From the NCBI GenBank assembly GCA_037200045.1, contig JBBCHM010000002.1, positions 669,241 to 733,240 on the forward strand: a stretch of DNA of 64,000 nt. Reading direction: 5' to 3'. A model generated the notes under the pieces. It was not told the origin of the DNA. It ran no database searches and worked only from the letters and a program-made list of their open reading frames with translations. How positions within the stretch are numbered: the stretch's first letter is position 1; each line of letters opens with the position of its first letter. The stretch comes from Rhizomicrobium sp. (GTDB taxonomy: Bacteria > Pseudomonadota > Alphaproteobacteria > Micropepsales > Micropepsaceae). This document shows positions 43,860 to 63,173 of this stretch, one piece after another. The translations under genes and the position numbers were made by a program.

Positions 43860-45134
43860 TCAGTGTTGCGACGCCGCCACGGTCGCCGGACCGGGCTCGG
43901 TCGCGGCCGGCGTGGGCATGAACACACGCACGATGGAGGCTATCGCGAGCAAAACGCCGGCAATCAGGAAGGCGCCGTGAATGCCGAATTGAGCGCTGAT
44001 CGGGGCAATGACCGCCGGATTGAGGAAGTCTGCCACCGAGACGATGACGAACACCAGGCCCACGGCACGGCCCCGCACGGCGGGCGCGGCCTTTTCCAGA
44101 ATGAGATGGCCGGTGAACGGCGTTGTCATGCCGCAGCCGAATCCGAAAACCAGGCAGGCGGCGGCGACGATCGGGATGTGCGTGACCGTGCCGGCGACGA
44201 TGAAGCCGAGCGACATCAGGCCGGTGAAAAGCACCACGATCCATTTGCGGCCGAGAAAGGCAAAGATCCAGCCGAACAGCATGCCTGCCGACATGCTGCC
44301 GATCGAGCCCAGCGAGATCATGAACGAGCGCGTCGTCGGTTCGCTGACCCCATCGGCCGCCAGCAGGAACGGAACCTGGATCGCCGACATCATCACGGCG
44401 ACATAGAGCACGAGGATCAGGAGATAGAGCGGTATCAGCGGTGTCAGGCCGCCTTTCTCTTTCGCCTGGGATGCACCGACCAGCGCCTGGTTGCCGCGCA
44501 CGGTCAGCGCGACGCACAGAAGGAACACCAGCGGCAGCAGATAGATGTAGAACGGCGCGCGCCATCCGTCGGCATGGGCGAGCGCCCCGGACAGATTGAT
44601 CGCGCTGACGCTGACGATGCCCGACACCGCGCCCGTATAGCCGAGCAGCTTGGCGCGGAGGCCGCCATCCGCCCACTCGGAAAGCAGCATCATCACGCAG
44701 GTCGAATGGGTCGCCACCACCAGGCCCAGCAGAAGGCGCGAGATCAGAAGAGGCCACATGTCGCTGAGATAGAGGCCGGCGGACCCGGTCACGACATAGA
44801 TGGCGAGGCCGCCCAGCATAACCCGCCTGAGGCCCAGCCGCTCCAGCAGGAATCCCGAGAGGGCGCCGCCGATGATCGTGCCAAGGCCCGGCATCGCCAT
44901 CATCATCTGCGCCACGAAGGGCCCGCGGGTGCCGCCGCCGAAATTCTCCGCCAGCGTCGGCAAGATCGGGGCGAGCGCCGCGAAGACCAGCGTGGCGCAG
45001 GGCGAGCTGGACAGCAACAGCACATAGGCCAGAATGCGAAGAGTGGGATTGGACGGCATGCCGATGCTGGCCTCGCGCGGCGCCTTCGGCGCCACTTCGG
45101 CGGCAAGGACTTCCTCTTCGCTTTCCAGCGTCAT
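43860..45134 (-). CDS. MFS transporter
   Basis: About 12 hydrophobic segments, GFLLERLGLRR motif A, WRAPFYIY. Confidence 0.87.
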   Translation of the reverse strand: MTLESEEEVLAAEVAPKAPREASIGMPSNPTLRILAYVLLLSSSPCATLVFAALAPILPTLAENFGGGTRGPFVAQMMMAMPGLGTIIGGALSGFLLERLGLRRVMLGGLAIYVVTGSAGLYLSDMWPLLISRLLLGLVVATHSTCVMMLLSEWADGGLRAKLLGYTGAVSGIVSVSAINLSGALAHADGWRAPFYIYLLPLVFLLCVALTVRGNQALVGASQAKEKGGLTPLIPLYLLILVLYVAVMMSAIQVPFLLAADGVSEPTTRSFMISLGSIGSMSAGMLFGWIFAFLGRKWIVVLFTGLMSLGFIVAGTVTHIPIVAAACLVFGFGCGMTTPFTGHLILEKAAPAVRGRAVGLVFVIVSVADFLNPAVIAPISAQFGIHGAFLIAGVLLAIASIVRVFMPTPAATEPGPATVAASQH

Positions 45135-45219
45135 GCCTCATCCTTCATCGGTACGCGCCCGGACCATAGAAAGCATGGTCCGGGCGGCTTCGTCAGGCGA
45201 TCAGTGCGACCGCTCGCCG

Positions 45220-47538
<2,319 letters not shown>

Positions 47539-47612
47539 TCGCTCCTCCGGTATTTTTTAACGCCCCTTCCCGAGCGCCTCAGCCATCGGCTGAATTTGGT
47601 CATACTGTAGGT

Positions 47613-47623
47613 CTGTCGGACAA
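47613..47623. promoter_or_regulatory. FadR-type operator copy 1 (CTGTCGGACAA)
   Basis: TGTC-N-GACA palindrome upstream of the TonB receptor. Confidence 0.6.
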
Positions 47624-47670
47624 TTCCGTCTAGACGCGAGTGTCGGCCCGCCTCAGAAAGACGCCAGCCG

Positions 47671-49164
47671 TTACTTTTCTGCCGCTATCCGTTCCGCGGC
47701 GAGGATCCCGAAGGTCGACGCCTCCGACCAACCGCCGGCCACGCCAAGACGCGGCCCGCCCTGGAGGCCGCCCATCGCGCCGCCCGCCGCATAGAGGCCT
47801 GGGATCGGACGGTCCGTCATGTCGACAATCTGGGCGTCCGGGGTCACCGCCAGGCCGCCCATCGCAAACGTGATCCCGGCTATGACGGGCATGGCGAAAT
47901 AGGGCGGGACACTGAGGGCACGGCCGCCCGGACTGCGGGGCGGGGCGAGGAGCGCCGCGCCCGAAGCCGCGCCGTCGTTCTTGCGCGCCGGACCTTCGAA
48001 GACCTCCTCTCCCGGAACGCCGGTGACCTCATAGAGCGAGGCACGTGCGGCGGGGCCGGCCGCGCTCGCCCAATAGGCGTTCACGGCTTCGACATTGCGC
48101 ACGACGGCGTCGCGCGGAAGACCGGCCTTCTCCGCCAGCTCGCCGATCGTGCCGGCCTCTAACAGCGTCGCCGCCAGTTCGACGAACAACGGGTTGGCGG
48201 GGACATCGCCATAGCGGCCTTCGCGCTCCCACATGCTCGAATCGAAGATCGCCCAGCAATTGTCGGGCGTGCGGCTCCGCGCGATCGCGTTGGCGACGCG
48301 TTCGCCCTTCGCGCTTTCGTCGACGAAGCGTTCGCCATGGCCGTCGACGAGCAGGCCGGTATAGATCAGAGCGCCCGGCGCGGGCAGCGGCCACAGCCGG
48401 TCGTCGGTCAGCGCGTCGCGCGACAGCGCATAGCCGTAGAACCACTCCATGTTCACGCATTTCGCGCCCAGCGAAAGGCCGATGCGCAGCGCATCGCCGG
48501 TATCGTTGGGCGATCCGCGCAGCTTGTAGTGCGGCGTGATGTATTTCGCGACGAGTTCGGGATTGCCCTGAAAGCCGCCATCGCAAAGCAGAAGATTGCG
48601 GCCGCGGACAAAGCTGTCGGATGTCGCGGTGCGCACGCGCACCGCATAGCCGCCGTCGATCCGCTCGGCCGCCACCGCGCGATGGCCGATGCGATGATCC
48701 CCGCCCGCGGCGACGAAGGCGGCATGCATCTTCGAAAGCAGGATGTCCGGCCCCTTGTCGCGCCAGCCCCGCCCGACGGTGGAGTCGCGTTGGGGCAGCA
48801 GCACGTTCTGCATCGCCTCCTCGGCCGGATTGAGCACGCCGAACGGCGCGCCTTCCTCGGCCAGGAAACGATAGGCCCGGCGCACATTGTTCGCCCAGGC
48901 GCGCACGACATCGGCGCGCGCGTGCCCGCCGGTTTCGTCCATCACCTTGTTGTAGAGTTCGTCAGGCGTGCGGATCTTGGGATCCCACATCGCGGCGTGA
49001 AACCACCCACCGGAAATGCGTCCATTGCCAAAACCCGGCGCGCTGTCGTGGCGCTCGAGCACGATGGCGCGGAGCCCGAGCTGCTGTGCGCGGCGCGCGG
49101 CGCAAAGCCCCGCCACGCCGCTGCCGACAATCACGACGTCGGCGATATCGCCCGCGCCGCTCAT
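47671..49164 (-). CDS. FAD-dependent oxidoreductase (FAD_binding_2: flavocytochrome c / KstD / TcuA superfamily)
   Basis: IVGSGVAG, LLCDGGFQGN, TGDA, LLVDGHGERFVDE, ITFAMGGL, GLYAAG. Confidence 0.88.
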   Translation of the reverse strand: MSGAGDIADVVIVGSGVAGLCAARRAQQLGLRAIVLERHDSAPGFGNGRISGGWFHAAMWDPKIRTPDELYNKVMDETGGHARADVVRAWANNVRRAYRFLAEEGAPFGVLNPAEEAMQNVLLPQRDSTVGRGWRDKGPDILLSKMHAAFVAAGGDHRIGHRAVAAERIDGGYAVRVRTATSDSFVRGRNLLLCDGGFQGNPELVAKYITPHYKLRGSPNDTGDALRIGLSLGAKCVNMEWFYGYALSRDALTDDRLWPLPAPGALIYTGLLVDGHGERFVDESAKGERVANAIARSRTPDNCWAIFDSSMWEREGRYGDVPANPLFVELAATLLEAGTIGELAEKAGLPRDAVVRNVEAVNAYWASAAGPAARASLYEVTGVPGEEVFEGPARKNDGAASGAALLAPPRSPGGRALSVPPYFAMPVIAGITFAMGGLAVTPDAQIVDMTDRPIPGLYAAGGAMGGLQGGPRLGVAGGWSEASTFGILAAERIAAEK

Positions 49165-50036
49165 GGCGCTTCGACACCCGGCACGGAAACTTCGACGATG
49201 TCGATCTGGCCGCTTGAATTAACTTCGGCGTCCTTGCGGCGGTCCGAACCGATGTACCGCAGATTGTCGATCAGTTCGAAGCCGGTGGTCGCGAGATACA
49301 GCGTCGTCCCGTTGGGGCCGCCGAGCGCGGGCGCCAGCGTATCGCGCCCCGGATTGGGAATCTCGTCGAGCAGTCTTCCATCCGCGCCCAGGCGATAGGC
49401 GCCGACATTGCCGCCGCCGCACCATACCGCGCCTTCGGCGTCGAGGCAGATGCCGTCGATGACAAAGCCCGGTCGTTCCGCCATCGTTTCGCGGTTCGTC
49501 AAGGAGCCGTCGGACTTGATGCGAAAGCGCGTGAGGCGGCCGATGCGCGCTTCCGCGACGATCAGGTGCTCGCCATCCGGCGTGACCGCCGAACCGTTCG
49601 GCGCGACCATGTCTTCGGCCACGACCCGGCAGGTGCCGTCCGGCATCGCAAGAATGACATTATCCGTCGCCGAACCCGTGGCTCCGCCGTTGCGGCCGCC
49701 GACATAGGCGCGCCCTTCTTTGTCCACCACCATGTCGTTGATGAACGACGCGCAGTGCGGCGAAAGATCGGCATGGGTCCACAGCTTGCCGTCCTTGAAC
49801 GCCAGGAGCTTGCGGTCAAGCATCGCGGAAATCAGCAGCGTACCGTCGGCGAGAAAGCCCAGTCCGGACGGCCGGTCGTCGATCCCGACGACCTTGCTGA
49901 GTTTGCCGTCCGCAGTGAGATGCATCACGGCATGGCCGTGAATGTCGGAGAACCACAGCGCGCCATGGCGCCAGCGCGGCCCTTCCGGAAAGCTGATCCC
50001 GTCGGCGAGTGTGCGAAGCCCAGTCTTGCCCGTCAT
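49161..50036 (-). CDS. SMP-30/gluconolactonase/LRE family protein
   Basis: FPEGPRW, WFSDI, PSGLGF, NDMVVD, PNG, DGICLDAEGAVW. Confidence 0.9.
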   Translation of the reverse strand: MTGKTGLRTLADGISFPEGPRWRHGALWFSDIHGHAVMHLTADGKLSKVVGIDDRPSGLGFLADGTLLISAMLDRKLLAFKDGKLWTHADLSPHCASFINDMVVDKEGRAYVGGRNGGATGSATDNVILAMPDGTCRVVAEDMVAPNGSAVTPDGEHLIVAEARIGRLTRFRIKSDGSLTNRETMAERPGFVIDGICLDAEGAVWCGGGNVGAYRLGADGRLLDEIPNPGRDTLAPALGGPNGTTLYLATTGFELIDNLRYIGSDRRKDAEVNSSGQIDIVEVSVPGVEAP

Positions 50037-50074
50037 AGCTGTTCCTCCCTGTGCTTGTTTTGAAGGAGGCTATA

Positions 50075-50089
50075 AACTGTCGGACAGTT
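50075..50089. promoter_or_regulatory. FadR-type operator copy 2 (AACTGTCGGACAGTT)
   Basis: Perfect 7-1-7 palindrome between the SDR and lactonase genes. Confidence 0.7.
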
Positions 50090-50101
50090 GGTCAATCCGC
50101 C

Positions 50102-50881
50102 TTAGCCGGCGGTATAGCCACCATCTACATATAGCGTCTGGCCGGTCATAAAGGCCGAGGCGGGCGAGGCCAGGAACACCAGCGCCCCCAAAAGGTCGCC
50201 CACTTCGCCCAACCGGCCGACGGCGATCCGGCGCTTGATACCGTCATACAAGTCGGGCTGCAGCCGGATCAGATCGCGGTTGAGGTCGGTCACGATGACC
50301 GTCGCCCCCAGCGTGTTGACCGTGATGCCGTCCCCGGCCACCTCGAAGGCCAGGGAGGCGCCAAAATTCGCCAGCGCCGCCTTGCTCGCGCAATAGGGCG
50401 TGCGGTTGGCCATGCCGCGGCCGGACAGAACCGAGCCCATATTGATGACGCGGCCATACTTGTTCCGGGCCATCACCGGCACGAAGGCGCGCGCGCACAG
50501 GAACGCGCCGGTCACGTTGACATCGACGATGCGGCGCCATTCCTCCACCGAAAGTTCGGTCATCAGCTTCGGCGCGGTGACGCCGGCATTGTTGAAGAGA
50601 ATGTCGGCCCGGCCGAACCCCGCCTGCACCTTCTCCGCGACCAGGTTCACGGCCGCCTCGTCGGTCACATCGGCTTCCACGATAACGGCGCGCCGGCCTG
50701 CGCCCGTCACGGCTTGCGCAGCGCGTTCCAATTTTGCGCGGTCGCGGGCTACGAGCGCCACGTCGGCGCCGGCCTGGGCAAAGGCGCGCGCGGCGGCCGA
50801 GCCGATACCGCCGCCGGCACCCGTCACGACGGCAACCCGACCGTCGAGCCGGAAACTGTCGAGGATCGAGGTCTCGGACAT
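50102..50881 (-). CDS. SDR family oxidoreductase
   Basis: TGAGGGIG, NNAG, YCASK, MTGQTLYVDGG. Confidence 0.92.
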   Translation of the reverse strand: MSETSILDSFRLDGRVAVVTGAGGGIGSAAARAFAQAGADVALVARDRAKLERAAQAVTGAGRRAVIVEADVTDEAAVNLVAEKVQAGFGRADILFNNAGVTAPKLMTELSVEEWRRIVDVNVTGAFLCARAFVPVMARNKYGRVINMGSVLSGRGMANRTPYCASKAALANFGASLAFEVAGDGITVNTLGATVIVTDLNRDLIRLQPDLYDGIKRRIAVGRLGEVGDLLGALVFLASPASAFMTGQTLYVDGGYTAG

Positions 50882-50885
50882 CGGC

Positions 50886-51065
50886 CTAGTCCTTCTTCAA
50901 GTCGAGCGGCATATGAAGCTCGATGAGCGCGCGAATGCGCTCGCGCAGATGTTCGTACTGGCCGGCAAGCAGGCCGTCGTCGCATCGGCACAGATGCTCG
51001 GCCTTTTCCAGCATGGCGCGCAAAATCGTCAGGTCATCGGCGCTCTTTTGTTGCGCGTGCACCAT
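50886..51065 (-). CDS. 59-aa small hypothetical protein (not in ORF track)
   Basis: GGAG RBS; MVHAQQKSADDLTILRAMLEKAEHLCRCDDGLLAGQYEHLRERIRALIELHMPLDLKKD-stop; fills the gap between the ligase and SDR genes. Confidence 0.65.
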   Translation of the reverse strand: MVHAQQKSADDLTILRAMLEKAEHLCRCDDGLLAGQYEHLRERIRALIELHMPLDLKKD

Positions 51066-51076
51066 GCGCGTACTCC

Positions 51077-52459
51077 TTACAATTTGTAGCCCTGCTGGCG
51101 TTCGTCGCTCCAGCGCCTCGCCTTATAAGCGAATTCCGGCAGTTCCGAGCGCGCCACTTCGCGCAGGGTCATCCACACATTGGTGCGCTGCTTGATCGCG
51201 GCGCGAATCTCCTCGAGCCGTTCCGCGCCGCCCGCGGCGAAAGCGATGAGCACCTCGACATCGGTCTTGCCGTCCGGGGTCGTGAACACGCGGCCGGCAT
51301 ATTCGACAACCTCGGGAAACGCGAAAACCGCGGCGTCGACCGCGCTCGGCCACACGTTGTTTCCGCGGATCTTCAACATGTCGTCGAAGCGGCCGATCGT
51401 GCCGCATTCGATGGCGTTCCAGCAGAGCCCGCCGCCGGCATCGCGGTAAGAAACAAAGCGTGCCGCATCGCCGGTCCGGAAGCGGATGACCGGCGTGCCT
51501 TCGATCGACAGATTGGTGACGACCATCTCGCCGGCCTCGCCGGACGCGACGGGACGCATGGTCTGCGGATCGACGACCTCGGTCAGGGTTTCCCATTCGA
51601 ACATCCGCATCAATCCGCGGGCACCGCCGCGCGTGACGGCGCCGCGATCGAGCGTCGATGCGGAGAACCCGGCGCATTGCGTGCTGCCATAGCCTTCCTG
51701 CAGACCGCAGCCCCAATGTTCTTCGATCTTCTGCGCCCACTCGACCGGGTAACCTTCCGCCGCGATGAACAGGCCATGCATGTCCGGAAACGCCTCGCGC
51801 GGGACAATGCCACGGCGCAGCAGCGCGTCGGTCAGGGTGTGAAGATAGTTGGTGGACGCGTAGATGAAATTCAGACCGCCCAGCCGCAGCATCAGATCGA
51901 TCTTGGCATCGGTCGACATATTGCCGCCGGGATGAAAGCCGGTCGCCCCGATGATGCGCAGCCCTTCGCCCGGCCCCCAGCCGCCCGTGGTCATCCCGCC
52001 GGCCGGCACGCAGTTCAGCACGGTGTCGCCCCGGCGCAGACCCGCCAGGTGCCAGGCGAGCGCATGCAGATAGCCCAGCATGTGCACGTCGCGCTGGCTG
52101 CGGCCATAAATCTCCTGCCCCTGCCCGGAAGTGCCGCCCGTCAGATTGACGAGGGCAACATCCGTGCGCGGAATGCCGAGCCGCGTGCCGAAAGGCGGCG
52201 CGGCCTGCTGGTCGGCCAGGAAATCGGCCTTCGACGATGTCGGAAAGCGCTGCGCAAACGCTTCGAGCGTTTCGATATCGTCCGGACGCAGCCCGACGGA
52301 CTGCATCTTCTGTCGGTAATAGGCGCTCGAATCGTAAAGGCGCGCGACCTGGCGGCGCACCTTCACCAATTGAAGGCCTTCAAGCTCGTCGCGCGACAGC
52401 GCGGCGAGCCTGGCCAGATACGGCGAATCCTCATATGGATTTTTCATGCCCGTGCGCAC
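51077..52459 (-). CDS. Phenylacetate-CoA ligase (PaaK)-family acyl-CoA ligase
   Basis: FPTSSKAD, LTGGTSG, QEGYGSTQ, PVIRFRTGD, GRFDDMLKIRGNNVWP. Confidence 0.88.
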   Translation of the reverse strand: MRTGMKNPYEDSPYLARLAALSRDELEGLQLVKVRRQVARLYDSSAYYRQKMQSVGLRPDDIETLEAFAQRFPTSSKADFLADQQAAPPFGTRLGIPRTDVALVNLTGGTSGQGQEIYGRSQRDVHMLGYLHALAWHLAGLRRGDTVLNCVPAGGMTTGGWGPGEGLRIIGATGFHPGGNMSTDAKIDLMLRLGGLNFIYASTNYLHTLTDALLRRGIVPREAFPDMHGLFIAAEGYPVEWAQKIEEHWGCGLQEGYGSTQCAGFSASTLDRGAVTRGGARGLMRMFEWETLTEVVDPQTMRPVASGEAGEMVVTNLSIEGTPVIRFRTGDAARFVSYRDAGGGLCWNAIECGTIGRFDDMLKIRGNNVWPSAVDAAVFAFPEVVEYAGRVFTTPDGKTDVEVLIAFAAGGAERLEEIRAAIKQRTNVWMTLREVARSELPEFAYKARRWSDERQQGYKL

Positions 52460-52477
52460 GCTGTCCTCACCGTCGAC

Positions 52478-52891
52478 CTAGGAAGATGCCGGCACGAAGA
52501 GCGGGAGCGTCACGCTGTCCGTCACGTCGCGGAATATCACGCGTACCGGCGTCTCCGCCCGAACGTCCGACGGATCGCACTCGACGATGTTCGATACGAT
52601 CCGCACGCCTTCATCCAGCTCGATGATCGCGACGACATACGGCACGTCGGACGCATAGACATCTTTCGGCACCGGGTGGCGCACGACGATCCAGCTGAAA
52701 ACCTTGCCACGCCCGGACGCTTCCAGCCAGCGTACGGCGTCCGAACGGCAATGCGAGCAGAACGTCGTGGGGGGAAAGCGATTGCGGCCGCAATTGCCGC
52801 ATTGCTGGATCAGCAATTTGTGTCGTCGCGTCCCTTCCCAGAAGGGCGCGCTCTCGGGATCGGGGACCGGCAACGGCTTGGCATATGTCAT
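52478..52891 (-). CDS. DUF35 Zn-ribbon/OB-fold protein
   Basis: PFWEG, CGNCG...CSHC, GKVFSW, PYVVAIIELDEG. Confidence 0.92.
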   Translation of the reverse strand: MTYAKPLPVPDPESAPFWEGTRRHKLLIQQCGNCGRNRFPPTTFCSHCRSDAVRWLEASGRGKVFSWIVVRHPVPKDVYASDVPYVVAIIELDEGVRIVSNIVECDPSDVRAETPVRVIFRDVTDSVTLPLFVPASS

Positions 52892-52894
52892 GGA

Positions 52895-54052
52895 TCAATT
52901 CCGCAAAATCATCGCGCTGCCGCAGGTCATCGCGCCGGCGGTGGTAAGGCCGATCCTGGCATCGGGCACCTGGCGAGGCCCAGCCTCGCCGCGCAATTGC
53001 TGCACCGCCTCGATGACGTGGTTCAGACCGTGAATATAGCCTTCCGACAGCAATCCGCCGGCGGTGTTGAGCGGAAGCTCGCCGCCGCGCGCGATGCGGC
53101 CGCCCTGCACATAGGCGCCGCCTTCGCCTTCCTTGCAGAAGCCGAGGCCTTCCAGCGCCATGATCACGCTGTAGGTGAAACAGTCGTAGATCTCGGCGAA
53201 ATCGACGTCGCGCTGCGTGACGCCGGCGCTGCGCCACAGATCGTCGGCGATGTATTTGGCGAAGTTGTGGGATTGATCGGGCCAGCGGATCGCATCGAAC
53301 AGATCCTCGCCCTGGTCCGGCCCGCCGCCATAGGCACCGCCCATGATGTAGACCGGCTTCTTCTTCATGTCGCGCGCGCGTTCCGTGCCGGTGATCAGCA
53401 CGGCGCAGGCGCCGTCGGTTTCCAGGCAGATATCGAGCATGCGGAACGGCTCGACGATCATGCGCGAGTCGAGATAGTCGGCCATGGTGATCGGTTGGCG
53501 CTGCATGGCGCGCGGATTGCGCGTTGCGTTTTCCCGAAAAGTGACCGCGATCTCGCCGAGCTGTTCGGGCGCCGTGCCATATTTGATGATGTGCCGGCGG
53601 CACCACATCGCCATGGCCTGCGGATAGGTGATCCAGCCGAAGGGCGCGGTGTATTGCGTGATTCCATGCGCGGAAAGATCGCGACCACCGCCCAGCCGGA
53701 AGCCGGAACGTCCGTTCATCGCGCGAAAGCACAGCACGTTGCGGGCAAGTCCGGCTTCGATCGCCGCCGTCGCGGCCAGGGTGATGAGATTGGCGGCGTT
53801 GCCGCCGCTCAGATAGTCGACGGCATAGCCGGCATTATCGAGGCCGAGTTCGGTGGCAACCGCCATCGCCGGCGCGGAATCGTTGAAGTGGAAGCTGATG
53901 ACGCCGTCGATGTCGGCCGCTTCAAGGCCGGCGTCGGCGATCGCCTTCAGGCACGCTTCGGACGCCAGGCTGCGGACGGTGCGTCCCGACTTCTTGGAGA
54001 AATCCGTCCAGCCGATTCCTGCGATCGCGTATTTGTCGCGTAGGCTCCACAT
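52895..54052 (-). CDS. Ltp2-like (SCP-x thiolase-fold) aldolase
   Basis: AIAGIGWTDFSKKSGR, CLETDG, IYDCFT, NTAGGLLSEGYIHG; no thiolase nucleophile Cys (DYLSGGNAA). Confidence 0.87.
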   Translation of the reverse strand: MWSLRDKYAIAGIGWTDFSKKSGRTVRSLASEACLKAIADAGLEAADIDGVISFHFNDSAPAMAVATELGLDNAGYAVDYLSGGNAANLITLAATAAIEAGLARNVLCFRAMNGRSGFRLGGGRDLSAHGITQYTAPFGWITYPQAMAMWCRRHIIKYGTAPEQLGEIAVTFRENATRNPRAMQRQPITMADYLDSRMIVEPFRMLDICLETDGACAVLITGTERARDMKKKPVYIMGGAYGGGPDQGEDLFDAIRWPDQSHNFAKYIADDLWRSAGVTQRDVDFAEIYDCFTYSVIMALEGLGFCKEGEGGAYVQGGRIARGGELPLNTAGGLLSEGYIHGLNHVIEAVQQLRGEAGPRQVPDARIGLTTAGAMTCGSAMILRN

Positions 54053-54055
54053 GGC

Positions 54056-54847
54056 TCAACCCTTGTCGTAATCCGGTTTGCGTTTTTCCTTGAAGGCGAT
54101 CAGACCTTCGGCCGCGTCGGGATGCGTCGTCGCATAATCATGGACGATCCTGATCTCCTGCTTCAGTCCCGATGCCTGATCCGTCTTCAGCGTCAGATTG
54201 GCGAGCCGTTTCGCGGTCGCCATGCCCGTGCGGCTCTTTTCAAGCAACCCGTCCACCAGCGCATCCACGCCGCCGTCGAGTTCGGCCGCTGGAAATACGC
54301 GGCACAGCAGGCCGATGCGATGGGCTTCCGCCGCCGGCAGCAATTCGCCCGTCAGCATGAGATATTTGGCCATCTGCAAGCCGACCGCGCGCGGCAGGCG
54401 CTGCGATCCGCCGGCGCCGGGCAATTGGCCGAAATTGAGATGTCCGTCGCCGATGGAAGCCGTGTCGGCCGCCACGGCCAGATCGCAGGCGAGCAAGAGT
54501 TCAAGGCCGCCGGCGACACACACACCATTGATGGCGGCAATGTAGATCTTTGGCGAAGCCTCGATCGTGTCGAGAAGATCGTGGAATTTCGACAGGAAGT
54601 CTTGGAAACGTTCTGGGGATTTGTAGAGTCCCAAATAGCCTTCCAGATCTCCGCCCGCCGAAAAGCTTCGGCCACTTCCCGTGATCACGACGACGCCAAT
54701 GTCGTTCCGCGCCTCGATTTCCGAAACTGCGGCACGCAACTTCCCAATAGTTGCCCAATCAAGAGGATTCAGCTTGGAAGGTCTGTTCAGGGTGACCCGG
54801 GCACGGCCTGGTGCAAAAGAGATAAGGACTTCGTTTTCCGTGCTCAC
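54056..54847 (-). CDS. Enoyl-CoA hydratase/isomerase family protein
   Basis: TLNRPSKLN, FSAGGDL, AAINGVCVAGGLE, LPGAGG; GTG 54847 chosen (ORF track start 54919). Confidence 0.9.
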   Translation of the reverse strand: MSTENEVLISFAPGRARVTLNRPSKLNPLDWATIGKLRAAVSEIEARNDIGVVVITGSGRSFSAGGDLEGYLGLYKSPERFQDFLSKFHDLLDTIEASPKIYIAAINGVCVAGGLELLLACDLAVAADTASIGDGHLNFGQLPGAGGSQRLPRAVGLQMAKYLMLTGELLPAAEAHRIGLLCRVFPAAELDGGVDALVDGLLEKSRTGMATAKRLANLTLKTDQASGLKQEIRIVHDYATTHPDAAEGLIAFKEKRKPDYDKG

Positions 54848-54873
54848 CAGCTCATCCGCTGCCGTATTGTCCG

Positions 54874-54887
54874 TTTGTCCGACAGTT
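54874..54887. promoter_or_regulatory. FadR-type operator copy 3 (TTTGTCCGACAGTT)
   Basis: In the crotonase/fadR divergent promoter; reverse complement AACTGTCGGACAAA matches copy 2. Confidence 0.7.
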
Positions 54888-54942
54888 GCATTGTAAGCAG
54901 CGCAGGGGATATCCATCAAGGGAAATCTGAGAGATTCCGCTC

Positions 54943-55722
54943 ATGGCAGTAATCGAGACCAAGCAGGAAAGTGGGCTGGTGCCACTGGAACGGGCGCCGA
55001 CCTATCGCTTGGTTCATGACGCCATCGAACGCGAGATCCTGGCGGGGCGCCTGAAGATCGGCGATCCGTTGCCGGCGGAATTGCAGTTGGCCGAGCGTTT
55101 CAAGGTTAACCGCTCCACGGTGCGCGAGGGCATCCGCCTTCTTGAGAAAAGCGGGTTGGTGGAGCGCAAGGGCGGAAAGCGCCCCCGGATCGCCGCGCCG
55201 CGCTATCGCGACCTGGCCTCGGCCGCGAGCCGCGCGCTGATCCTGCATGCCGTTACCTTTCGCGAATTGTGGGAGGCCTCGATGGTCATCGAGCCGTCGA
55301 CGGCGGAATTCGCGGCGCGAAACATCACCGAGGCCGACATTGCGAAGCTTTCGGCCAACATCGCCGAGATGGAGGAGAGCGTCGAGCGTCTGGAAACCGG
55401 GCTGGAAGACAAGCCGGACGGGTTCGTGGACCTGGACCGGAAATTTCACGAATTGCTGGTCAACGCGACCGGCAATCGCGTCCTGATCCTGGCGCATGAG
55501 CCTGTCACCACCCTGTTCATTCCGGCCGGACGTCTCATACTTCCGCGCCTGAAGACCTATCGCCGCGTGCTCGACGCGCATCGGCATATTTTCGACTTCC
55601 TCAAGAAGCGCGATCCCGAAGGCGCGGGCAAATGGATGCACCGGCATATGGACGATTTCCGCCGTGGCTACGAATTGACCGGGCTGGATTTCGATACGCC
55701 GCTCGAGATGGTCAACGTCTGA
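54943..55722 (+). CDS. FadR/GntR family transcriptional regulator
   Basis: GDPLPAELQLAERFKVNRSTVREGI HTH; FCD with DRKFHELL...ATGN. Confidence 0.92.
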   Translation: MAVIETKQESGLVPLERAPTYRLVHDAIEREILAGRLKIGDPLPAELQLAERFKVNRSTVREGIRLLEKSGLVERKGGKRPRIAAPRYRDLASAASRALILHAVTFRELWEASMVIEPSTAEFAARNITEADIAKLSANIAEMEESVERLETGLEDKPDGFVDLDRKFHELLVNATGNRVLILAHEPVTTLFIPAGRLILPRLKTYRRVLDAHRHIFDFLKKRDPEGAGKWMHRHMDDFRRGYELTGLDFDTPLEMVNV

Positions 55723-55728
55723 TCCGGC

Positions 55729-56655
55729 TCAGCCCCGCCAGCCTTCCAGCGTCGCGATATCGAGCGCGTCGATCGCGGCGCGCACTTGTTTCTGCTGCGC
55801 CGCCGGAAGCTCGGCGCGCGGTTTGCGCGGATAGCCGCCGGGCAGGCCGAGATCTATGAGCGCGCCCTTGGTCGCCCGGATCCCGCCATTGGCATAGATG
55901 AGTCCGTGCAGCCGCACGATCTTTCCGTAGGCGCGCATGACGCCCTCCAAATCGTTGGCGGCATAGGCGCGGACCAGCGACATGCACAGATGCGGCGCCA
56001 GATTGCCTTCCGAGCACAGATAGCCCTGCCCGCCGAGCGCCCAGCCGACCAAGGCCTGAACCGGCCCGCCGACAAAAACGCCCACGCGCCCGCGCGTAGC
56101 GTCGACGATGTCGGCGAGATAGCGCAGATCCTGATGGCTGCAATTGACCTCGATGATGTGCGGATAGGTCTCGAGCAGACGCGAAATGGTTTCCACCGGC
56201 ACGCGGTAGCCGACCGACTGGTGGGTGGAGATCACGACGGGAAGATCGGTCGATTCCAGCGCTTCGGTCAGATAGCTGGCGACCTCCTCCTGCAAAGGCG
56301 GGTGGCCGTGGCCCACGTCGAGCGAATAGATTTGCGCGGCATCGACGCCGGCGGCTTTGCAGAGCGCCAGGAATTCCACCATCTGACGGGGCGTGCGGGG
56401 CTCCACGCCCATCGCGCGCACGGGCACCTTGCCCTTCAATTCCTCCACGCCGATGTCCAATAGGCGGCGGGTCTCCGCCGGGGTCAACGTGTAGCCCTCG
56501 CCGCTGCCGCTCCCACCGATATAGACGCCGATTCCGGCGGCGGCCAACCGGCGCAGATGCCCGCGGAAGCCGGCTTCATCGATATGGCCGTCCCGGTCGA
56601 ACGGCGTGATGGAAATCACGAAAGCGGCAGGCGGTCGCGCGGTGGTGTTCGACAT
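55729..56655 (-). CDS. DapA/DHDPS-fold protein lacking canonical catalytic residues
   Basis: ITPFDRDGHID, GSGSGEG, KGKVPV, G.PRKP fold motifs; HIIEVNCS where DapA has NIxGIKES. Confidence 0.85.
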   Translation of the reverse strand: MSNTTARPPAAFVISITPFDRDGHIDEAGFRGHLRRLAAAGIGVYIGGSGSGEGYTLTPAETRRLLDIGVEELKGKVPVRAMGVEPRTPRQMVEFLALCKAAGVDAAQIYSLDVGHGHPPLQEEVASYLTEALESTDLPVVISTHQSVGYRVPVETISRLLETYPHIIEVNCSHQDLRYLADIVDATRGRVGVFVGGPVQALVGWALGGQGYLCSEGNLAPHLCMSLVRAYAANDLEGVMRAYGKIVRLHGLIYANGGIRATKGALIDLGLPGGYPRKPRAELPAAQQKQVRAAIDALDIATLEGWRG

Positions 56656-56729
56656 CCGATTTCCCTCTCTGGCTCTTTTCTGCGGAATTCCGGGATTTGT
56701 GTCCTCCCGTGCACAATCATTTTGACCGA

Positions 56730-56740
56730 CTGTCAGACAG
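56730..56740. promoter_or_regulatory. FadR-type operator copy 4 (CTGTCAGACAG)
   Basis: Perfect 5-1-5 palindrome in the dapA-like/OYE divergent promoter. Confidence 0.7.
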
Positions 56741-56769
56741 AATGCTAGTGCTTTTGCCGGAGCCGGCAC

Positions 56770-58734
56770 ATGACCACGACCTCACTTCTCAATTCTCCGA
56801 TCCGCATCGGGGCGATGACCGCCCCCAACCGGATCATGATGGCGACGCACGGGCCGCGCCTGCCGCAGGCACGCTACCTAGGCTATCTGGAGGCCCGGGC
56901 GGCGGGTGGGGTCGGTCTCTTCGGCTTCAACGTCGGGGCGCTGGGGATTTCGCCGTTTCCCTTCGGACCGGGGCGGACAGCGCCGCCCTTTGCCGCCGAG
57001 CCCGACGCCGTCCCACCACACCCCCGCACGGCCGAGGGCCGCACTTTCTATGACGGCCAGATCGGCACCTACCGCGTGTGGAGCGACGCCGTTCATCGCC
57101 ATGGCGCCAAGTCGATCGGCCAGCTCTATCATCCGGGCGCTGCCCGCCATGCCGACAACTATCAGCCGGCCGTCGGACCGTCGGCGGTTGCCGACGAACT
57201 CGAGGGCAATGTTCCGCGCGCCCTCACCCGCAAGGATATCGCCGATCTGACTCAGGCCTATGCCTTGGGAGCGCGGCGGGCGCTGGAGGCGCGCTGCGAC
57301 GGGCTGGAACTACATGCCGCGCACGGATACCTGCTGCACGAATTTCTGTCGCCGCTCTTCAACCAGCGCGACGACATCTATGGCGGCACGCTGGAGAACC
57401 GGCTCCGGCTCGTTCTGGAGATCCTGGCCGCGGTCCGCGACGCCATCGACGACGCCTGCCCCGTCGGCCTGCGATTGACAGGGCCCGACAATGCCGAGGG
57501 CGGCCTCAGCCTCGAAGATATCGTCCATGTCGCGACGCGCGCGACGCAATCGGGCGCCGCCTATATCAGCATTTCCGCCGGGACCTATGCCGGCCTTCTG
57601 GGCGGGAAGAACCTGCCCTATGTCGCACCTGGCTTCGTGAGGTCGCCGCCGAACGTCGCCGCAGCCGCCGCCGTCCGGCGCGCCGTTGCCGTTCCGGTCA
57701 TCGTCACCGGCCGTATCGTCGATCTCGCCATTGCCGAAGACATCGTGCGGTCCGAAGCAGCCGACGTTGTCGGCATCGTGCGCGGGCTGATCGCCGAGCC
57801 GCGCCTGGCCGCCAAGCATTTCCAGAAGTCCGACGAGCTTCCGACCCCGTGCATCGCCTGCAATGAATGCCACACCGGACAGATGGTGGCGTGCCCCACC
57901 AATCCGTCGATCGGCTGGGAGGTACTCGGCATGCCGAAGGCGGCCGAAAAAGCGCTGCGCGTGCTGGTGATCGGCGCGGGCCCCGCCGGTATCCAATGCG
58001 CGTTGACCGCCGCCGAACGGGGACACCCTGTCGAACTCGTCGAACGCGACGGCGAGATCGGCGGGCTGACCGCGCTTCTGGCGCGAAGCACCGAACAGGC
58101 GGATTACGCAGCCTATCTGCGCTATGCCACCACGATGCTCGGCCGGCGCGGCGTCAACCTTCGGCTGAACACTGAAGCGGATGCCGCGCTGATCGTGCAG
58201 CTCTCGCCGGATGTCGTGGTGCTGGCGACAGGCGCCGTGCGTGCATCCCGGCCGGGATATACCGATCCGGTGGCTGCGATGAACACGCCCGCCCTATCGG
58301 GCCGCCATGTCGTGGTCGACGGCGGCGTCGGCAAGCACCTTCCCCCGCTCATCTGCGCCAACCGGCTGGCCGAAATGGGATGCCGCGTCACGCTGGTCAC
58401 CCAATCCGCGGCACCGGGCGAAAAAGTCGAGGCGGCTAGCCGCATCGCGCTTCTGGCGTCGCTGAGCGCGCGAGGCGTCGCCATCGTTCCCGGCACACGC
58501 GCGGGCGCGTTCGAAAATCGGGCGCTGAGCCTTCGGAACGTCTGGACAGGCGCGACGACGAACCTTGCCGACATCGATGCCGTCGTCTGTGCCGACAATC
58601 GCTTTCCCGGCGCGGCGCTCGAGAGGGCGGTGCGCGACCTTGGACTTCCGGTCCATGTCATCGGCGACGCGCTGGCGCCGCGGCGCATGCTGCATGCCTC
58701 GCTGGACGGTGCGCGGCTGGGCAACACCCTATGA
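56770..58734 (+). CDS. Large OYE-family NADH:flavin oxidoreductase (FMN barrel + Fe-S + FAD)
   Basis: PNRIMM, ELHAAHGYLLHEFLSP, NQRDDIYGG, CIACNEC...CPTNP, VIGAGPAG, GDA. Confidence 0.9.
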   Translation: MTTTSLLNSPIRIGAMTAPNRIMMATHGPRLPQARYLGYLEARAAGGVGLFGFNVGALGISPFPFGPGRTAPPFAAEPDAVPPHPRTAEGRTFYDGQIGTYRVWSDAVHRHGAKSIGQLYHPGAARHADNYQPAVGPSAVADELEGNVPRALTRKDIADLTQAYALGARRALEARCDGLELHAAHGYLLHEFLSPLFNQRDDIYGGTLENRLRLVLEILAAVRDAIDDACPVGLRLTGPDNAEGGLSLEDIVHVATRATQSGAAYISISAGTYAGLLGGKNLPYVAPGFVRSPPNVAAAAAVRRAVAVPVIVTGRIVDLAIAEDIVRSEAADVVGIVRGLIAEPRLAAKHFQKSDELPTPCIACNECHTGQMVACPTNPSIGWEVLGMPKAAEKALRVLVIGAGPAGIQCALTAAERGHPVELVERDGEIGGLTALLARSTEQADYAAYLRYATTMLGRRGVNLRLNTEADAALIVQLSPDVVVLATGAVRASRPGYTDPVAAMNTPALSGRHVVVDGGVGKHLPPLICANRLAEMGCRVTLVTQSAAPGEKVEAASRIALLASLSARGVAIVPGTRAGAFENRALSLRNVWTGATTNLADIDAVVCADNRFPGAALERAVRDLGLPVHVIGDALAPRRMLHASLDGARLGNTL

Positions 58735-58743: not shown

Positions 58744-59619
58744 ATGATCGATAAACAAATCGGGTTGTCCGCCTTCGTCGCGAGTCTTCGCGACGGCATG
58801 ACGATCGGCATCGGTGGCTGGGCGACCCGCCGCAAGCCCATGACGCTGGTGCGCGCCATCGCGCGCTCCGGCCTGAAGGACCTGACGGTCGTTTCCTATG
58901 GCGGTCCGGACGTGGGCATCCTGGCGGCGGAGGGCAAGATCCGGAAGCTCGTTTTCGGATTCGTATCGCTGGATCACATCCCGCTCGATCCGCATTTCCG
59001 CGCCGCGCGCCAGGCCGGCGCCTTCGAGATTCTGGAACTGGACGAAGGCATGGTGCATTGGGGCCTGAGGGCCGCGGCCATGCATCTGCCGTTTCTGCCA
59101 TCCCGCAGCGGCCTCGCGACCGACATTGCCAACCAGCCGGAATTGAAGACGATCCGCAGCCCCTATGCCGACGGCGAGCTTCTGCTGGCCATGCCGGCGC
59201 TGAGGCTCGATGCGGCGCTCATCCATGTGCATCGCGCGGACCGGCACGGAAATGCGCTGATCCTGGGTCCCGACCCGTTCTTCGACGAATTGATGGCGAG
59301 GGCGGCGGAGCGCACCTACATCTCCACCGAGCGCCTGGTGAGCACCGAAGATCTCGCCATCGCCGAAAACGCCCGTTTCAACCCGTTCGAACGCAGCGTC
59401 GTGCAGGGCGTGATCCTGGCACCTTTCGGCGCGCATCCCACGGTCGCCACACCGGACTACGGCATCGACATGGCGCATCTGAAGGAATACGCCGCAAGCG
59501 CGGCGCCCGGCGCCTGGCAGGAATATCGCGCGCGATTCATCGCCGTCGAGCCCGAACGATATCTCGCCAGCGTCGGCGGCGCCGAGAATCTCGGCGCCTT
59601 GCCGGCGCCCATCTATTGA
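58744..59619 (+). CDS. ipdA: CoA-transferase-like subunit alpha, steroid C/D-ring hydrolase (IpdA/ScdL1)
   Basis: GIGGWATRRKPM, YGGPDVG, FVSLD, DEGMVHWGLRAAA, GAHPT. Confidence 0.88.
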   Translation: MIDKQIGLSAFVASLRDGMTIGIGGWATRRKPMTLVRAIARSGLKDLTVVSYGGPDVGILAAEGKIRKLVFGFVSLDHIPLDPHFRAARQAGAFEILELDEGMVHWGLRAAAMHLPFLPSRSGLATDIANQPELKTIRSPYADGELLLAMPALRLDAALIHVHRADRHGNALILGPDPFFDELMARAAERTYISTERLVSTEDLAIAENARFNPFERSVVQGVILAPFGAHPTVATPDYGIDMAHLKEYAASAAPGAWQEYRARFIAVEPERYLASVGGAENLGALPAPIY

Positions 59620-59627
59620 GCCCCGCC

Positions 59628-60437
59628 ATGACTTACGGCTACGCCCTCGCCGACCTTTGCATCTGCGCCGCGGCCGAAGCCTGGCGCCACGATGGCGAAG
59701 TTCTGGCGACCGGCATCACACCCATCCCGCGCCTCGCCGCGGGACTGGCAAAGCTCACCTTCAACGACGCGCTGCTGATGACCGACAGCGAAGCGTTTTT
59801 CGTGTCGGAGCCGGTGCCGCTCGGCCCGCGAAACGGCTATCAGCCGAAATTCGAAGGCTGGGCCTCCTACGCGCGCACCTTCGATTTGCTGTGGGGCGGC
59901 AAACGCCACGCCTTCGTCCTGCCGACGCAGATCGACCGCTTCGGCCAGGCGAACATCAGCGTTGTCGGCGATCATGCCAGGCCCAAGACGGCGCTGCTCG
60001 GTTCGCGCGGCTATCCCGGCAATTCGGTGCATCATCCCAACAGCTATTTCCTCCCGACGCACAACAAGCGCGCCTTCGTGGCGGGCGAAGTCGATTTCGT
60101 GTCGGCCGCCGGTTACAACCCCGCCCGATGGCCGGACGGGAAAAAACCGCCCGAGCTCGATCTGCGGCTGATCGTCAGCAATCTCGCGGTGCTCGATTTC
60201 GAGGGCCCCGACCATGCGATCCGCGTGCGTTCGCTGCACCCCGGCGTTTCGTTCGAAGACGTGCAGGACAAAACCGGCTTTGCGCTGGAAAAGGCGCCCG
60301 GCCTCGCGCAGACGCCGGCACCCACGCCCGCCCAGCTCGATCTCATCCGCACCAGACTCGATCCTCTCGGGTTGCGGCTCGGCGTGTTCAAGGACGACAG
60401 CGACGGCGCGTTCGTCGCGACCAAGGAGCCGGCATGA
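59628..60437 (+). CDS. ipdB: CoA-transferase-like subunit beta (IpdB/ScdL2)
   Basis: ADLCICAAAEAWRHDGEVL, LMTDSEA, QIDRFGQANIS, LGSRGYPGN, SLHPGV. Confidence 0.88.
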   Translation: MTYGYALADLCICAAAEAWRHDGEVLATGITPIPRLAAGLAKLTFNDALLMTDSEAFFVSEPVPLGPRNGYQPKFEGWASYARTFDLLWGGKRHAFVLPTQIDRFGQANISVVGDHARPKTALLGSRGYPGNSVHHPNSYFLPTHNKRAFVAGEVDFVSAAGYNPARWPDGKKPPELDLRLIVSNLAVLDFEGPDHAIRVRSLHPGVSFEDVQDKTGFALEKAPGLAQTPAPTPAQLDLIRTRLDPLGLRLGVFKDDSDGAFVATKEPA

Positions 60438-61321
60438 GCGATCTCATCGAACCGAAAAAGACCGATGTCGTCTACGAAACGGACGCGCCGGTCATCTATG
60501 TCGCGGAAGGCCCGATCGCGTGGATCACGATGAACCGCGAGCGGTATCACAACGTCCAGAACTCGCAGATGACCTACGCCCTCGACGCCGCCTTCCGGCG
60601 GGCTGTGGACGATGACGCGATCAAGGTGATCGTGCTGGGCGGCGCCGGAAAGCATTTCTCCGCCGGGCATGACATCGGCACGCCGGGCCGCGATCTGCAT
60701 CACAGCTTCGAGCGCCGCCACCTGCTCTACGATCACGTCAACAAGCCCGGCGCCGAACTTCTCTACACGCGCGAGCAGGAAGTCTATCTCGGCATGTGCC
60801 GGCGCTGGCGCGACCTGCCCAAGCCGACCATCGCCATGGTGCAAGGCGCCTGTATCGCGGGCGCGCTCATGCTGGCCTGGGTGTGCGACTTCATCGTCGC
60901 GTCCGACGATGCCTTCTTCCAGGATCCGGTGGTGCGGATGGGAATCCCCGGCGTGGAATATTTCGCGCATGCCTTCGAGCTGCCGCCGCGCATTGCCAAG
61001 GAGTTCCTGCTCCTGGGCGAGCGGATGTCCGCCGAACGCGCCGCGCAATTCGGCATGGTCAACCGGGTGGTTCCACGCGCCGCGCTCAAGGACGAAGTCG
61101 GCGCCATGGCGGCGAAACTCGCCGCGCAGCCGCGCCTGGGCGTGTGGCTGAGCAAGCAGGCGATCAATCACGTGGAGGAATTGCGCGGCAAGCGCACGGC
61201 GATGGACGCCGTCTTTCACATGCACCATTTCGCGCACGCCCAGAACGACCTGGTGAGCGGCGACAGCCTGGCGGGACTGGACGGCAAGTCCATGGCGCAG
61301 GCGAACAAGACGCAGGGATAA
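60434..61321 (+). CDS. echA13: Enoyl-CoA hydratase (EchA13/ScdN-like)
   Basis: NVQNSQMTYALD, FSAGHDIG, REQEVYLGMCRRWR, MGIPGVEYFAH. Confidence 0.82.
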   Translation: MSDLIEPKKTDVVYETDAPVIYVAEGPIAWITMNRERYHNVQNSQMTYALDAAFRRAVDDDAIKVIVLGGAGKHFSAGHDIGTPGRDLHHSFERRHLLYDHVNKPGAELLYTREQEVYLGMCRRWRDLPKPTIAMVQGACIAGALMLAWVCDFIVASDDAFFQDPVVRMGIPGVEYFAHAFELPPRIAKEFLLLGERMSAERAAQFGMVNRVVPRAALKDEVGAMAAKLAAQPRLGVWLSKQAINHVEELRGKRTAMDAVFHMHHFAHAQNDLVSGDSLAGLDGKSMAQANKTQG

Positions 61322-61338
61322 CGCGGTTGGGCAATGCC

Positions 61339-62406: not shown

Positions 62407-62413
62407 GGACGTC

Positions 62414-63163: not shown

Positions 63164-63173
63164 GGCGCATGCG

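Follow-up and report, generated by a model that had tools for sequence, protein, structure and literature searches.

A candidate retro-aldol module for carboxylic acid side chains in a GntR/FCD-type regulon beside steroid ring C/D genes

Here we describe thirteen genes at positions 43860-58734 of a 64-kilobase (kb) stretch of DNA from a Rhizomicrobium sp. (contig JBBCHM010000002.1; hereafter the window), which derives from a wood-decay metagenome bin. In the reading that we favour, at a probability of about 0.55, these genes belong to a regulon of several modules that is controlled by an FCD-type GntR repressor and directed at the CoA-dependent cleavage of a side chain by a retro-aldol reaction. 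Its ancient part would be a module of seven genes, coding for the regulator, a crotonase, an aldolase, a stand-alone DUF35 protein, a PaaK-like ligase, a 59-residue protein and a short-chain dehydrogenase/reductase (SDR), which would shorten a carboxylic acid side chain beyond the reach of ordinary beta-oxidation. We infer the enzymatic steps, the repression and the substrate from gene content, operators, active-site residues, gene fusions and synteny.

To our knowledge, retro-aldol cleavage of the Ltp2 or Sal type is known only from the removal of steroid side chains, where it is accompanied by MaoC partner hydratases. The system described here would be a distinct and much wider-spread version, carried by at least 69 species-level genomes from the Alphaproteobacteria and by a few from the Betaproteobacteria, and distinguished by its crotonase, PaaK-like ligase, free DUF35 protein and new small protein, as well as by a regulator and an operator that are apparent from the sequence itself. 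Among the carriers are the cultured Novosphingobium sp. EMRT-2, Bosea sp. F3-2, Pseudolabrys sp. Root1462 and Stella vacuolata. Should the substrate prove to be an ordinary acid, the finding would merely be a useful annotation.

Gene layout, conserved core and operator

All thirteen open reading frames (ORFs) listed in a first-pass annotation of the window are present, and the domain families that we assigned with Pfam agree with the folds given there (E-values in brackets). One correction concerns the regulator, a GntR/FCD protein that the annotation called FadR: the true ORF is 54943-55722 on the plus strand, and the overlapping minus-strand ORF 54916-55647, which has no Pfam match, was rejected.

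43860-45134, minus strand: major facilitator superfamily (MFS) transporter (MFS_1 1.7e-33), last gene of the receptor-MFS unit
45220-47538, minus strand: TonB-dependent outer-membrane receptor (Plug and beta-barrel domains)
47671-49164, minus strand: soluble FAD_binding_2 flavoprotein of the fumarate-reductase/KstD family (Pfam)
49161-50036, minus strand: SMP-30/gluconolactonase-family (SGL) lactonase (SGL 9.9e-38)
50102-50881, minus strand: SDR oxidoreductase (adh_short_C2 1.3e-60), member of the core
50886-51065, minus strand: conserved 59-residue protein without Pfam match
51077-52459, minus strand: PaaK-like adenylate-forming acyl-CoA ligase (AMP-binding and AMP-binding_C_2)
52478-52891, minus strand: stand-alone DUF35 protein of 137 residues (zf-ChsH2 and OB_ChsH2_C)
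52895-54052, minus strand: SCP2-thiolase-like protein of the Ltp2/Sal type (SCP2-thiolase fold without the nucleophilic Cys), the putative aldolase
54056-54849, minus strand: crotonase-fold enzyme (ECH_1 8.7e-56)
54943-55722, plus strand: GntR and FCD regulator (GntR 5.2e-17, FCD 2.3e-26), divergent from the crotonase gene
55729-56655, minus strand: DHDPS/DapA-fold protein (DHDPS 7.8e-30; start ATG 56655)
56770-58734, plus strand: FadH/NCR-type old yellow enzyme (OYE) flavoenzyme (Oxidored_FMN and Pyr_redox_2), first gene of a plus-strand operon

Judged by spacing, crotonase, aldolase, DUF35, ligase, 59-residue protein and SDR form one unit with gaps of 3-18 nucleotides (nt); lactonase and flavoprotein form another, in which the two reading frames share 4 nt at the lactonase stop and the flavoprotein start, and the remaining units are receptor-MFS, the DapA-fold gene alone, and the OYE gene with the genes downstream of it. 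The crotonase start was set at GTG 54849, because otherwise the promoter-like element and operator of the gene would fall inside its own ORF; for the ligase, the database protein begins at M5 (52447). None of the cluster proteins scanned reached its NCBIfam equivalog cutoff, so that no curated name applies to them.

A search for relatives of the ligase returned 427 homologs, the best of them 72% identical, and we fetched 69 genome loci that each encode a ligase relative (54-72% identity) and inspected 10 kb on either side, counting as orthologs proteins with at least 45% identity; the genome scan used two peptide patterns and missed carriers with diverged motifs. Orthologs were present for the ligase in 68 of the 69 loci, for the DUF35 protein in 66, for the aldolase in 65, for the SDR in 62, for the crotonase in 57 and for the regulator in 40. 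Aldolase, DUF35 and ligase genes are colinear in 62/69 loci, and the SDR orthologs (53-72% identical) lie downstream of the ligase gene. Directly after the ligase gene, 53 of 70 loci encode a homolog of the 59-residue protein with the motif D..IL..ML..A..LC..DALL.GQY.HLR.RI.ALIEL, and the Novosphingobium record L070 has a short hypothetical coding sequence (CDS) annotated at this position; on the Bosea plasmid L075 a 66-residue hypothetical CDS follows the crotonase gene, and a tblastn search with the 59-residue ORF at that locus (E<=1e-3) gave no match. On the evidence of these comparisons, the ORF is a genuine conserved small protein.

None of the 69 loci carries orthologs of the receptor, MFS transporter, flavoprotein, lactonase or OYE within 10 kb of the core, and the OYE is missing from nearly all related loci. 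The thirteen genes are therefore a lineage-specific assembly, a mosaic around a conserved seven-gene module, and not one conserved unit, which partly refutes the first-pass proposal on the terms that it had set itself: what is co-conserved is crotonase, aldolase, DUF35, ligase, 59-residue ORF and SDR, together with the regulator in 40 of the loci.

The core occurs in two contexts. In Pseudolabrys, Xanthobacteraceae, Rhodospirillales and Bosea it is accompanied by genes for another SDR, a phosphotransferase, a Liv-type ABC transporter, acyl-CoA dehydrogenases (ACADs) and FadB, and in some cases by one for a true thiolase. About 16 sphingomonad loci, and likewise the annotated plasmid L070, have ipdA-ipdB-echA20-ipdC-ech-ACAD-ACAD-ligase immediately before the core, and behind it SDR genes and one for a KshA-type Rieske oxygenase; an MFS transporter, a receptor (36-39% identical to the window receptor) and an Amidohydro_2 hydrolase are encoded upstream of the ipd genes.

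The thirteen genes had been described as having four palindromes at their promoters, and this is borne out: TGTCNGACA occurs exactly four times in the 64-kb window (47614, 50078, 54876 and 56731), where 0.59 copies would be expected, and 0/100 shuffled sequences reached four copies. Each of the sites is intergenic and stands before a start codon, at a distance of 27-110 base pairs (bp).

47614-47622: operator 1 (TGTCGGACA), 76 nt upstream of the receptor start codon
50078-50086: operator 2 (TGTCGGACA), 42 nt upstream of the lactonase start codon
54868-54884: operator 3, TGTCCGACA with an adjacent half-site (reverse complement TTGTCGGACAAACGGACA), between the divergent crotonase and regulator genes
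56731-56739: operator 4 (TGTCAGACA), between the divergent DHDPS-fold and OYE genes

Operator 3 sits just downstream of a -35/-10-like element, the one promoter-like element used here, since the promoter and terminator scan of the window was overall at chance level. A one-mismatch search of the window for further operators gave no convincing extra promoter site.

The palindrome, as TGTC(C/G)GACA, recurs in the regulator-crotonase spacer of essentially every one of the 69 loci that has a regulator ortholog; these orthologs are 49-71% identical to the window regulator and always have the palindrome nearby. An extended form, TTGTCSGACAAACGGACAGT, is frequent in the related loci, is matched by the window site on the reverse strand, and stands at the orthologous position in about 40 loci. 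Where sphingomonad loci are without the regulator, the palindrome is missing from that position upstream of the crotonase gene. Moreover, many non-sphingomonad loci have a second site between a phosphotransferase gene and an ACAD or FadB gene (copies near 18820-18880 in L005, L007, L010-L014 and others), and on the Bosea plasmid the palindrome precedes three cluster operons (213, 1554 and 14045). This phylogenetic footprint suggests that the operator belongs to the FCD regulator, which is predicted to bind it.

The label of a FadR regulon holds at the level of the subfamily, in that the regulator is an FCD-type (FadR subfamily) GntR protein with a TGTCNGACA operator, but with 28.7 bits it stays far below the NCBIfam equivalog cutoff of 189 and so is no ortholog of the E. 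coli FadR. With the FadR-subfamily GntR regulators, which have palindromic tGT-N-ACa operators, it has in common the winged-helix GntR and FCD domains, and likewise a 9-bp inverted repeat, TGTC-N-GACA, at divergent promoters and the predicted control of acyl-CoA metabolism genes. We also observed that outside sphingomonads the operator precedes APH-type phosphotransferase, ACAD, FadB and thiolase genes, and that the FCD regulator of L070 is not orthologous (30% identity), with no operator at the L070 crotonase gene.

The ring C/D operon and the accessory genes

The first-pass annotation had ended the regulon at 58734 and noted its linkage to genes for the degradation of steroid rings C and D. 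This linkage is supported: ipdA starts 9 nt after the OYE gene and opens an operon that lies outside the range annotated before.

58744-64000, plus strand: ring C/D operon
58744-59619, plus strand: ipdA (6co6 and 6con, 2.6e-81 and 7e-77)
59616-60437, plus strand: ipdB
60440-61321, plus strand: echA20-like gene
61330-62406, plus strand: ipdC-like NMO gene
62414-63163, plus strand: ech
63171 to the window end, plus strand: ACAD gene, continuing beyond the window

The assignment of ipdA is supported by its match to solved IpdA (2.6e-81), against only 7e-23 for glutaconate CoA-transferase, and by the order of the genes, with the alpha subunit followed by the beta subunit and the echA20-like and ipdC-like genes. 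Because the OYE gene is so tightly followed by ipdA and the rest of the operon, operator 4 probably governs both, and the regulon would reach past 58734. The ring C/D genes of the window are 62-75% identical to those that precede the core in sphingomonads. How sphingomonads remove the steroid side chain has been recognised as an open question (PMC8399759; bioRxiv 10.1101/2021.05.19.444901), and since the module lies inside a ring C/D operon there, it is a concrete candidate for this route.

The annotated plasmid, pABRDHK22 of Novosphingobium sp. EMRT-2 (L070), carries a 30-kb cluster (3378-33316) in which ipdAB-echA20-ipdC and the core are combined with genes for a receptor, an SDR, an MFS transporter, two hydrolases (one of the Amidohydro_2 family, the other a large amidohydrolase), two oxygenases (a KshA-type Rieske oxygenase and a luciferase-like monooxygenase), a Coq4-family protein and RibB. 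From its gene content, the cluster looks like a complete catabolic island for a steroid-like compound.

Among solved proteins, the flavoprotein of the window comes nearest to flavocytochrome c fumarate reductase and to 3-oxosteroid dehydrogenases, and in two fused relatives (P0147 and P0151) a flavoprotein 48-49% identical to that of the window is joined to a crotonase domain, itself 48% identical to the window crotonase and with the same GDGH motif. From the existence of such FAD-ECH fusions we argue that flavoproteins of this family and the crotonase share a CoA thioester, on which the flavoprotein would act just before the crotonase, as a desaturase. One of the fusions resides in L074, together with an aldolase (47% identical, with YDCF and GYVHG), a DUF35 protein, a ligase, an SDR and an Amidohydro_2 hydrolase, and the fusion gene adjoins that of an OYE 41% identical to the OYE of the window. 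The combination of predicted functions that the first-pass annotation singled out is thus repeated in an unrelated lineage.

Other relatives of the flavoprotein (57-63% identical) adjoin receptor and MFS genes. In L071 the whole set of lactonase, receptor, MFS transporter and flavoprotein occurs with an IclR regulator and without the core nearby; the lactonase, which heads this cassette, is 62% identical to that of the window, the receptor 57% and the MFS transporter 56%. Receptor, MFS transporter, lactonase and flavoprotein are thus a cassette of their own, which can occur apart from the core. No signal peptide is evident in the lactonase sequence. In both L071 (1-21488) and L072, the cassette and its IclR gene are flanked by phage or gene-transfer-agent-like structural genes, with tail proteins on one side and tail completion, HK97 gp10-like and major capsid genes on the other, and look like cargo inserted into such a cluster.

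It is these observations that give weight to the strongest rival explanation, namely that functionally separate pathways share a regulator or are merely adjacent, and that only the seven-gene core does CoA chemistry. Lactonase, flavoprotein, receptor and MFS transporter would then be a lactone-utilisation cassette, and the DapA-fold gene and the OYE-ipd genes would belong to other routes. The cassettes of L071 and L072 (SGL, receptor, MFS and FAD proteins, 56-62% identical, with no core nearby) speak for this, as do the absence of these genes from the surroundings of the core in the 69 loci and an accessory regulon content that varies by lineage. On the other side stand the same rare palindrome at the promoters of all four units, the FAD-ECH fusions with the repetition of aldolase, DUF35, ligase, SDR, FAD-ECH and OYE in L074, and the lactonase-capable Amidohydro_2 hydrolases that stand in the corresponding position next to transporters in L070 and L074. 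We regard separate pathways as a serious possibility, yet one to which we would give only about half the weight of the regulon for side-chain cleavage.

Active sites of the core enzymes and comparison with known systems

The SCP2-like protein has its best solved relatives in TcLtp2 (6ok1_A, 2.4e-73), CtSal (9myr_A, 4e-41), SCP2 thiolase (4e-38) and BbsB (2e-28). It lacks the nucleophilic Cys that a thiolase carries in its N-terminal domain: at this position it has a Gly, as does CtSal (SGGNAAN, aligned with LGGAS of CtSal and GGGAAC of TcLtp2), and the replacement is kept in 64/64 orthologs. A reading as thiolase was rejected on these active-site residues. YDCF (IYDCFT) and GYIHG (EGYIHG) are invariant in the 64 orthologs. 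In the characterised enzymes the Tyr of YDxF/Y is the catalytic base and the acid is either Tyr344 (Ltp2) or the motif Cys (Sal), and CtSal, without the thiolase Cys, is incapable of thiolysis (PMC12329534). The window protein has both candidate acids, the YDCF Cys of Sal and the GYIHG Tyr of Ltp2, in what amounts to a hybrid active site. With Ltp2 as closest relative, the thiolase nucleophile gone and the aldolase residues kept, the Ltp2-like identity and the retro-aldol chemistry proposed in the first-pass annotation are supported.

The DUF35 protein is presumed to be the partner of this aldolase. Its closest solved relatives are the DUF35 domains of Shy (9myr_B) and ChsH2 (6ok1_B), both of which bind aldolases, and it carries a Cx2Cx10Cx2C zinc motif. 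Pfam finds no MaoC domain in the cluster; the DUF35 protein is separate, and the adjacent candidate for a hydratase is the crotonase. Canonical enoyl-CoA hydratases use the catalytic pair Glu144 and Glu164 (numbering of the rat enzyme). In alignments to EchA8 and 5zai, the crotonase of the window keeps the first catalytic Glu (GGLE) but has His for the second, in GDGH, whose Asp and His are invariant in 54 orthologs.

For the ligase, the best solved relatives are PaaK1/2 (1e-36) and 2-hydroxyisobutyryl-CoA synthetase; against the PaaK equivalog TIGR02155 it scores 140.7 bits, with a cutoff of 646, and has only the domain architecture in common. Of the solved proteins, those most like the OYE are 2-naphthoyl-CoA reductase and 2,4-dienoyl-CoA reductase (1e-51), both ene-reductases of thioesters, and the OYE is probably an enoyl- or dienoyl-CoA reductase. 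The DapA-fold protein is not a class I aldolase, and a role as retro-aldolase was rejected, because in three alignments its Schiff-base Lys is replaced by Asn (EVNCSHQD); its YN(x)P Tyr motif appears there as STHQS. These substitutions are kept in six orthologs, in L018 and in five loci of sphingomonads, all about 10 kb away from the core, and the protein may be an enzyme or a binding protein.

The residues of the SCP2-like protein also speak against a further alternative, ordinary beta-oxidation of an already unsaturated acid such as a hydroxycinnamate or phenylpropanoid, in which the SDR would be a 3-hydroxyacyl-CoA dehydrogenase and the SCP2-like and DUF35 proteins a thiolase of the BbsAB type. 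Ligase, crotonase, SDR, thiolase-fold protein and DUF35 protein would formally complete such a cycle, the DUF35 and thiolase-fold proteins have weak matches to BbsA and BbsB, and the sample, decaying wood, is rich in lignin acids. However, the nucleophilic Cys is replaced throughout the orthologs, as in CtSal, the match to BbsB is far weaker than that to Ltp2, and the regulon holds no aromatic ring-cleavage genes, which together make this alternative improbable. A condensing thiolase-like/DUF35 pair (similar to PhlABC or to archaeal thiolase/HMG-CoA synthase) in a cluster that builds a metabolite is more improbable still: DUF35 proteins do scaffold condensing complexes, and PhlB and the archaeal DUF35 protein are among the weaker structural relatives, but the context is one of uptake (TonB receptor, MFS and ABC transporters), beta-oxidation and ipd genes, there is no PhlA- or HMGCS-like partner, and the nearest relatives are catabolic aldolases.

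The closest known systems are ChsH1-ChsH2-Ltp2 of actinobacteria (ORF40-44 in Comamonas testosteroni) and Shy-Sal of proteobacteria, which contain the same Cys-less retro-aldolase of SCP2-thiolase fold. Both share with the window the catalytic Tyr of YDxF, a partner DUF35 zinc-ribbon/OB protein, the proposed order of CoA ester formation, hydration and C-C cleavage and, in this window and in sphingomonads, ring C/D neighbours; of the second residue, Tyr344 in Ltp2 and Cys in Sal, the window protein has both. The differences are that the hydratase candidate is a Glu/His crotonase in place of a MaoC hydratase, that DUF35 is a separate protein and not the C-terminal domain of the MaoC hydratase (ChsH2, Shy), that the ligase is PaaK-like in place of FadD-type, that a conserved 59-residue protein and an SDR are added, that the active site is a YDCF and Tyr hybrid, and that many carriers are without nearby steroid genes. 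By analogy, the variant may work like ChsH-Ltp2 or Shy-Sal, minus the MaoC hydratase with its DUF35 domain.

More distant likenesses exist. Arthrobacter sp. CA1 reportedly degrades cyclohexylacetate via its CoA ester and cyclohexylidene-acetyl-CoA to the substrate of (1-hydroxycyclohexan-1-yl)acetyl-CoA lyase (EC 4.1.3.35), and we know of no genes for this pathway. It resembles the scheme proposed here in its ring-borne acetic chain, its tertiary alcohol and a lyase that yields acetyl-CoA and a cyclic ketone, and a phenylacetate-type ligase would suit a ring-CH2-COOH substrate; a literature search on cyclohexylacetate and on abscisic acid yielded no genes for comparison. The benzoylsuccinyl-CoA thiolase BbsAB likewise combines a thiolase fold with a stand-alone DUF35 protein beside a CoA ligase in a catabolic cluster, but BbsB is a true thiolase, whereas the window protein is without the nucleophilic Cys. 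IpfDEF of ibuprofen degradation has a thiolase-fold protein and a stand-alone DUF35 protein by a CoA ligase, in a cluster with dioxygenase genes that are absent here. The levulinate lva operon of Pseudomonas putida reportedly encodes a ligase (LvaE), an SDR (LvaD), a phosphotransferase (LvaA) and an ACAD-like protein (LvaC); similarly, non-sphingomonad loci have an APH-type phosphotransferase and an ACAD with the same operator beside the ligase and SDRs. These two genes are not in the window, and lva is without aldolase, DUF35 and crotonase. By analogy, the likeness hints at the handling of a 4-oxo- or 4-hydroxyacyl-CoA after the aldolase step.

Two candidates for identity were rejected. The proposed bile-salt side-chain cluster of Sphingobium sp. 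Chol11 (SclA ligase, Scd4AB, Rieske oxygenase, amidases) differs in gene content, and the Chol11 work reports no aldolase homologs. In the steroid cluster of Caenibius tardaugens, a lipid-transfer/DUF35 pair separates ipdB from echA20, with DUF35 preceding Ltp, and its closest counterparts are reported to be Rv1628c/Rv1627c; going by this description, it looks like another paralog. In the literature outside subscription journals we found no characterised pathway with this gene set, in agreement with the statement of the first-pass annotation that no described pathway has this combination.

Proposed route, substrate and further features of the window

The proposed route would begin with the import of the compound by the TonB receptor and the MFS transporter and perhaps the opening of a lactone by the SGL lactonase, as is suggested by the cassette of receptor, MFS transporter, lactonase and flavoprotein under the same operator. 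The PaaK-like ligase would form the CoA thioester, which would be desaturated at the alpha,beta position, here probably by the flavoprotein and in other lineages by ACADs of the same regulon. The His-type crotonase would then add water, and the aldolase-DUF35 complex would cleave the product by a retro-aldol reaction to acetyl- or propionyl-CoA and a carbonyl compound, whose redox state the SDR, and here also the FadH-like OYE, would adjust. In this genome the ketone would enter ring C/D degradation, probably as a hydrindanone-type steroid remnant, since operator 4 precedes OYE-ipdAB-echA20-ipdC-ech-ACAD. An aldolase instead of a thiolase would make chemical sense if the chain is borne on a ring or branched carbon, where hydration gives a tertiary alcohol, as for Ltp2. 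Of what was first proposed, the chemistry of CoA ligation, hydration and retro-aldol cleavage is supported; a single conserved unit of thirteen genes is not.

The phenylacetate-type ligase suits, by analogy, a ring-CH(R)-COOH acid. For this genome and for sphingomonads we lean, at somewhat less than even odds, towards a hydrindane or C17-side-chain acid or lactone derived from a steroid. A more general alicyclic or branched acid is possible but slightly less so, and would better fit the carriers without nearby ipd genes. More tentatively, the core may be the missing gene set of a general bypass of blocked beta-oxidation for acetic or propionic chains off a ring or tertiary carbon, with a fumarate-reductase/KstD-family flavoprotein desaturase, the Glu/His crotonase and the 59-residue accessory protein as its players, and either a route of the orphan (1-hydroxycyclohexan-1-yl)acetyl-CoA lyase type or the sphingomonad steroid side-chain route as candidates.

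Several points weigh against our reading of the regulon. About 40 non-sphingomonad loci (for example in Bosea and Pseudolabrys) pair the core with an ABC transporter and beta-oxidation genes and are free of ipd genes for 10 kb on either side; because of this the core, as judged from its neighbourhoods, is not intrinsically a steroid module. The genes for flavoprotein, lactonase, receptor, MFS transporter and OYE do not adjoin the core in the 69 loci, and their membership in one pathway is argued from the operator and the L074 fusion locus. Co-occurrence is what pairs the regulator with the operator. With the second catalytic Glu missing from the crotonase, hydration is assumed, and the scheme leaves the roles of the SDR, the 59-residue protein and the Lys-less DapA-fold protein unexplained. 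Finally, the sequence is present only in wood-decay metagenome runs and is absent from the one metatranscriptome.

Elsewhere in the window, a second catabolic cluster (22333-34002) has its own GntR/FCD regulator (27655-28389), with one-mismatch palindromes at 27318 and 27358 upstream of it, and encodes a TonB receptor, an extradiol-dioxygenase-like protein, an FMO/Baeyer-Villiger-like monooxygenase, a DmpG-type aldolase and an SDR. A cluster for haem uptake and utilisation (ABC ATPase, FecCD permease, HemS/ChuX and TonB receptor) occupies 14738-20773, and luciferase-like monooxygenases with a sulfonate-type binding protein are encoded at 8955-14730.

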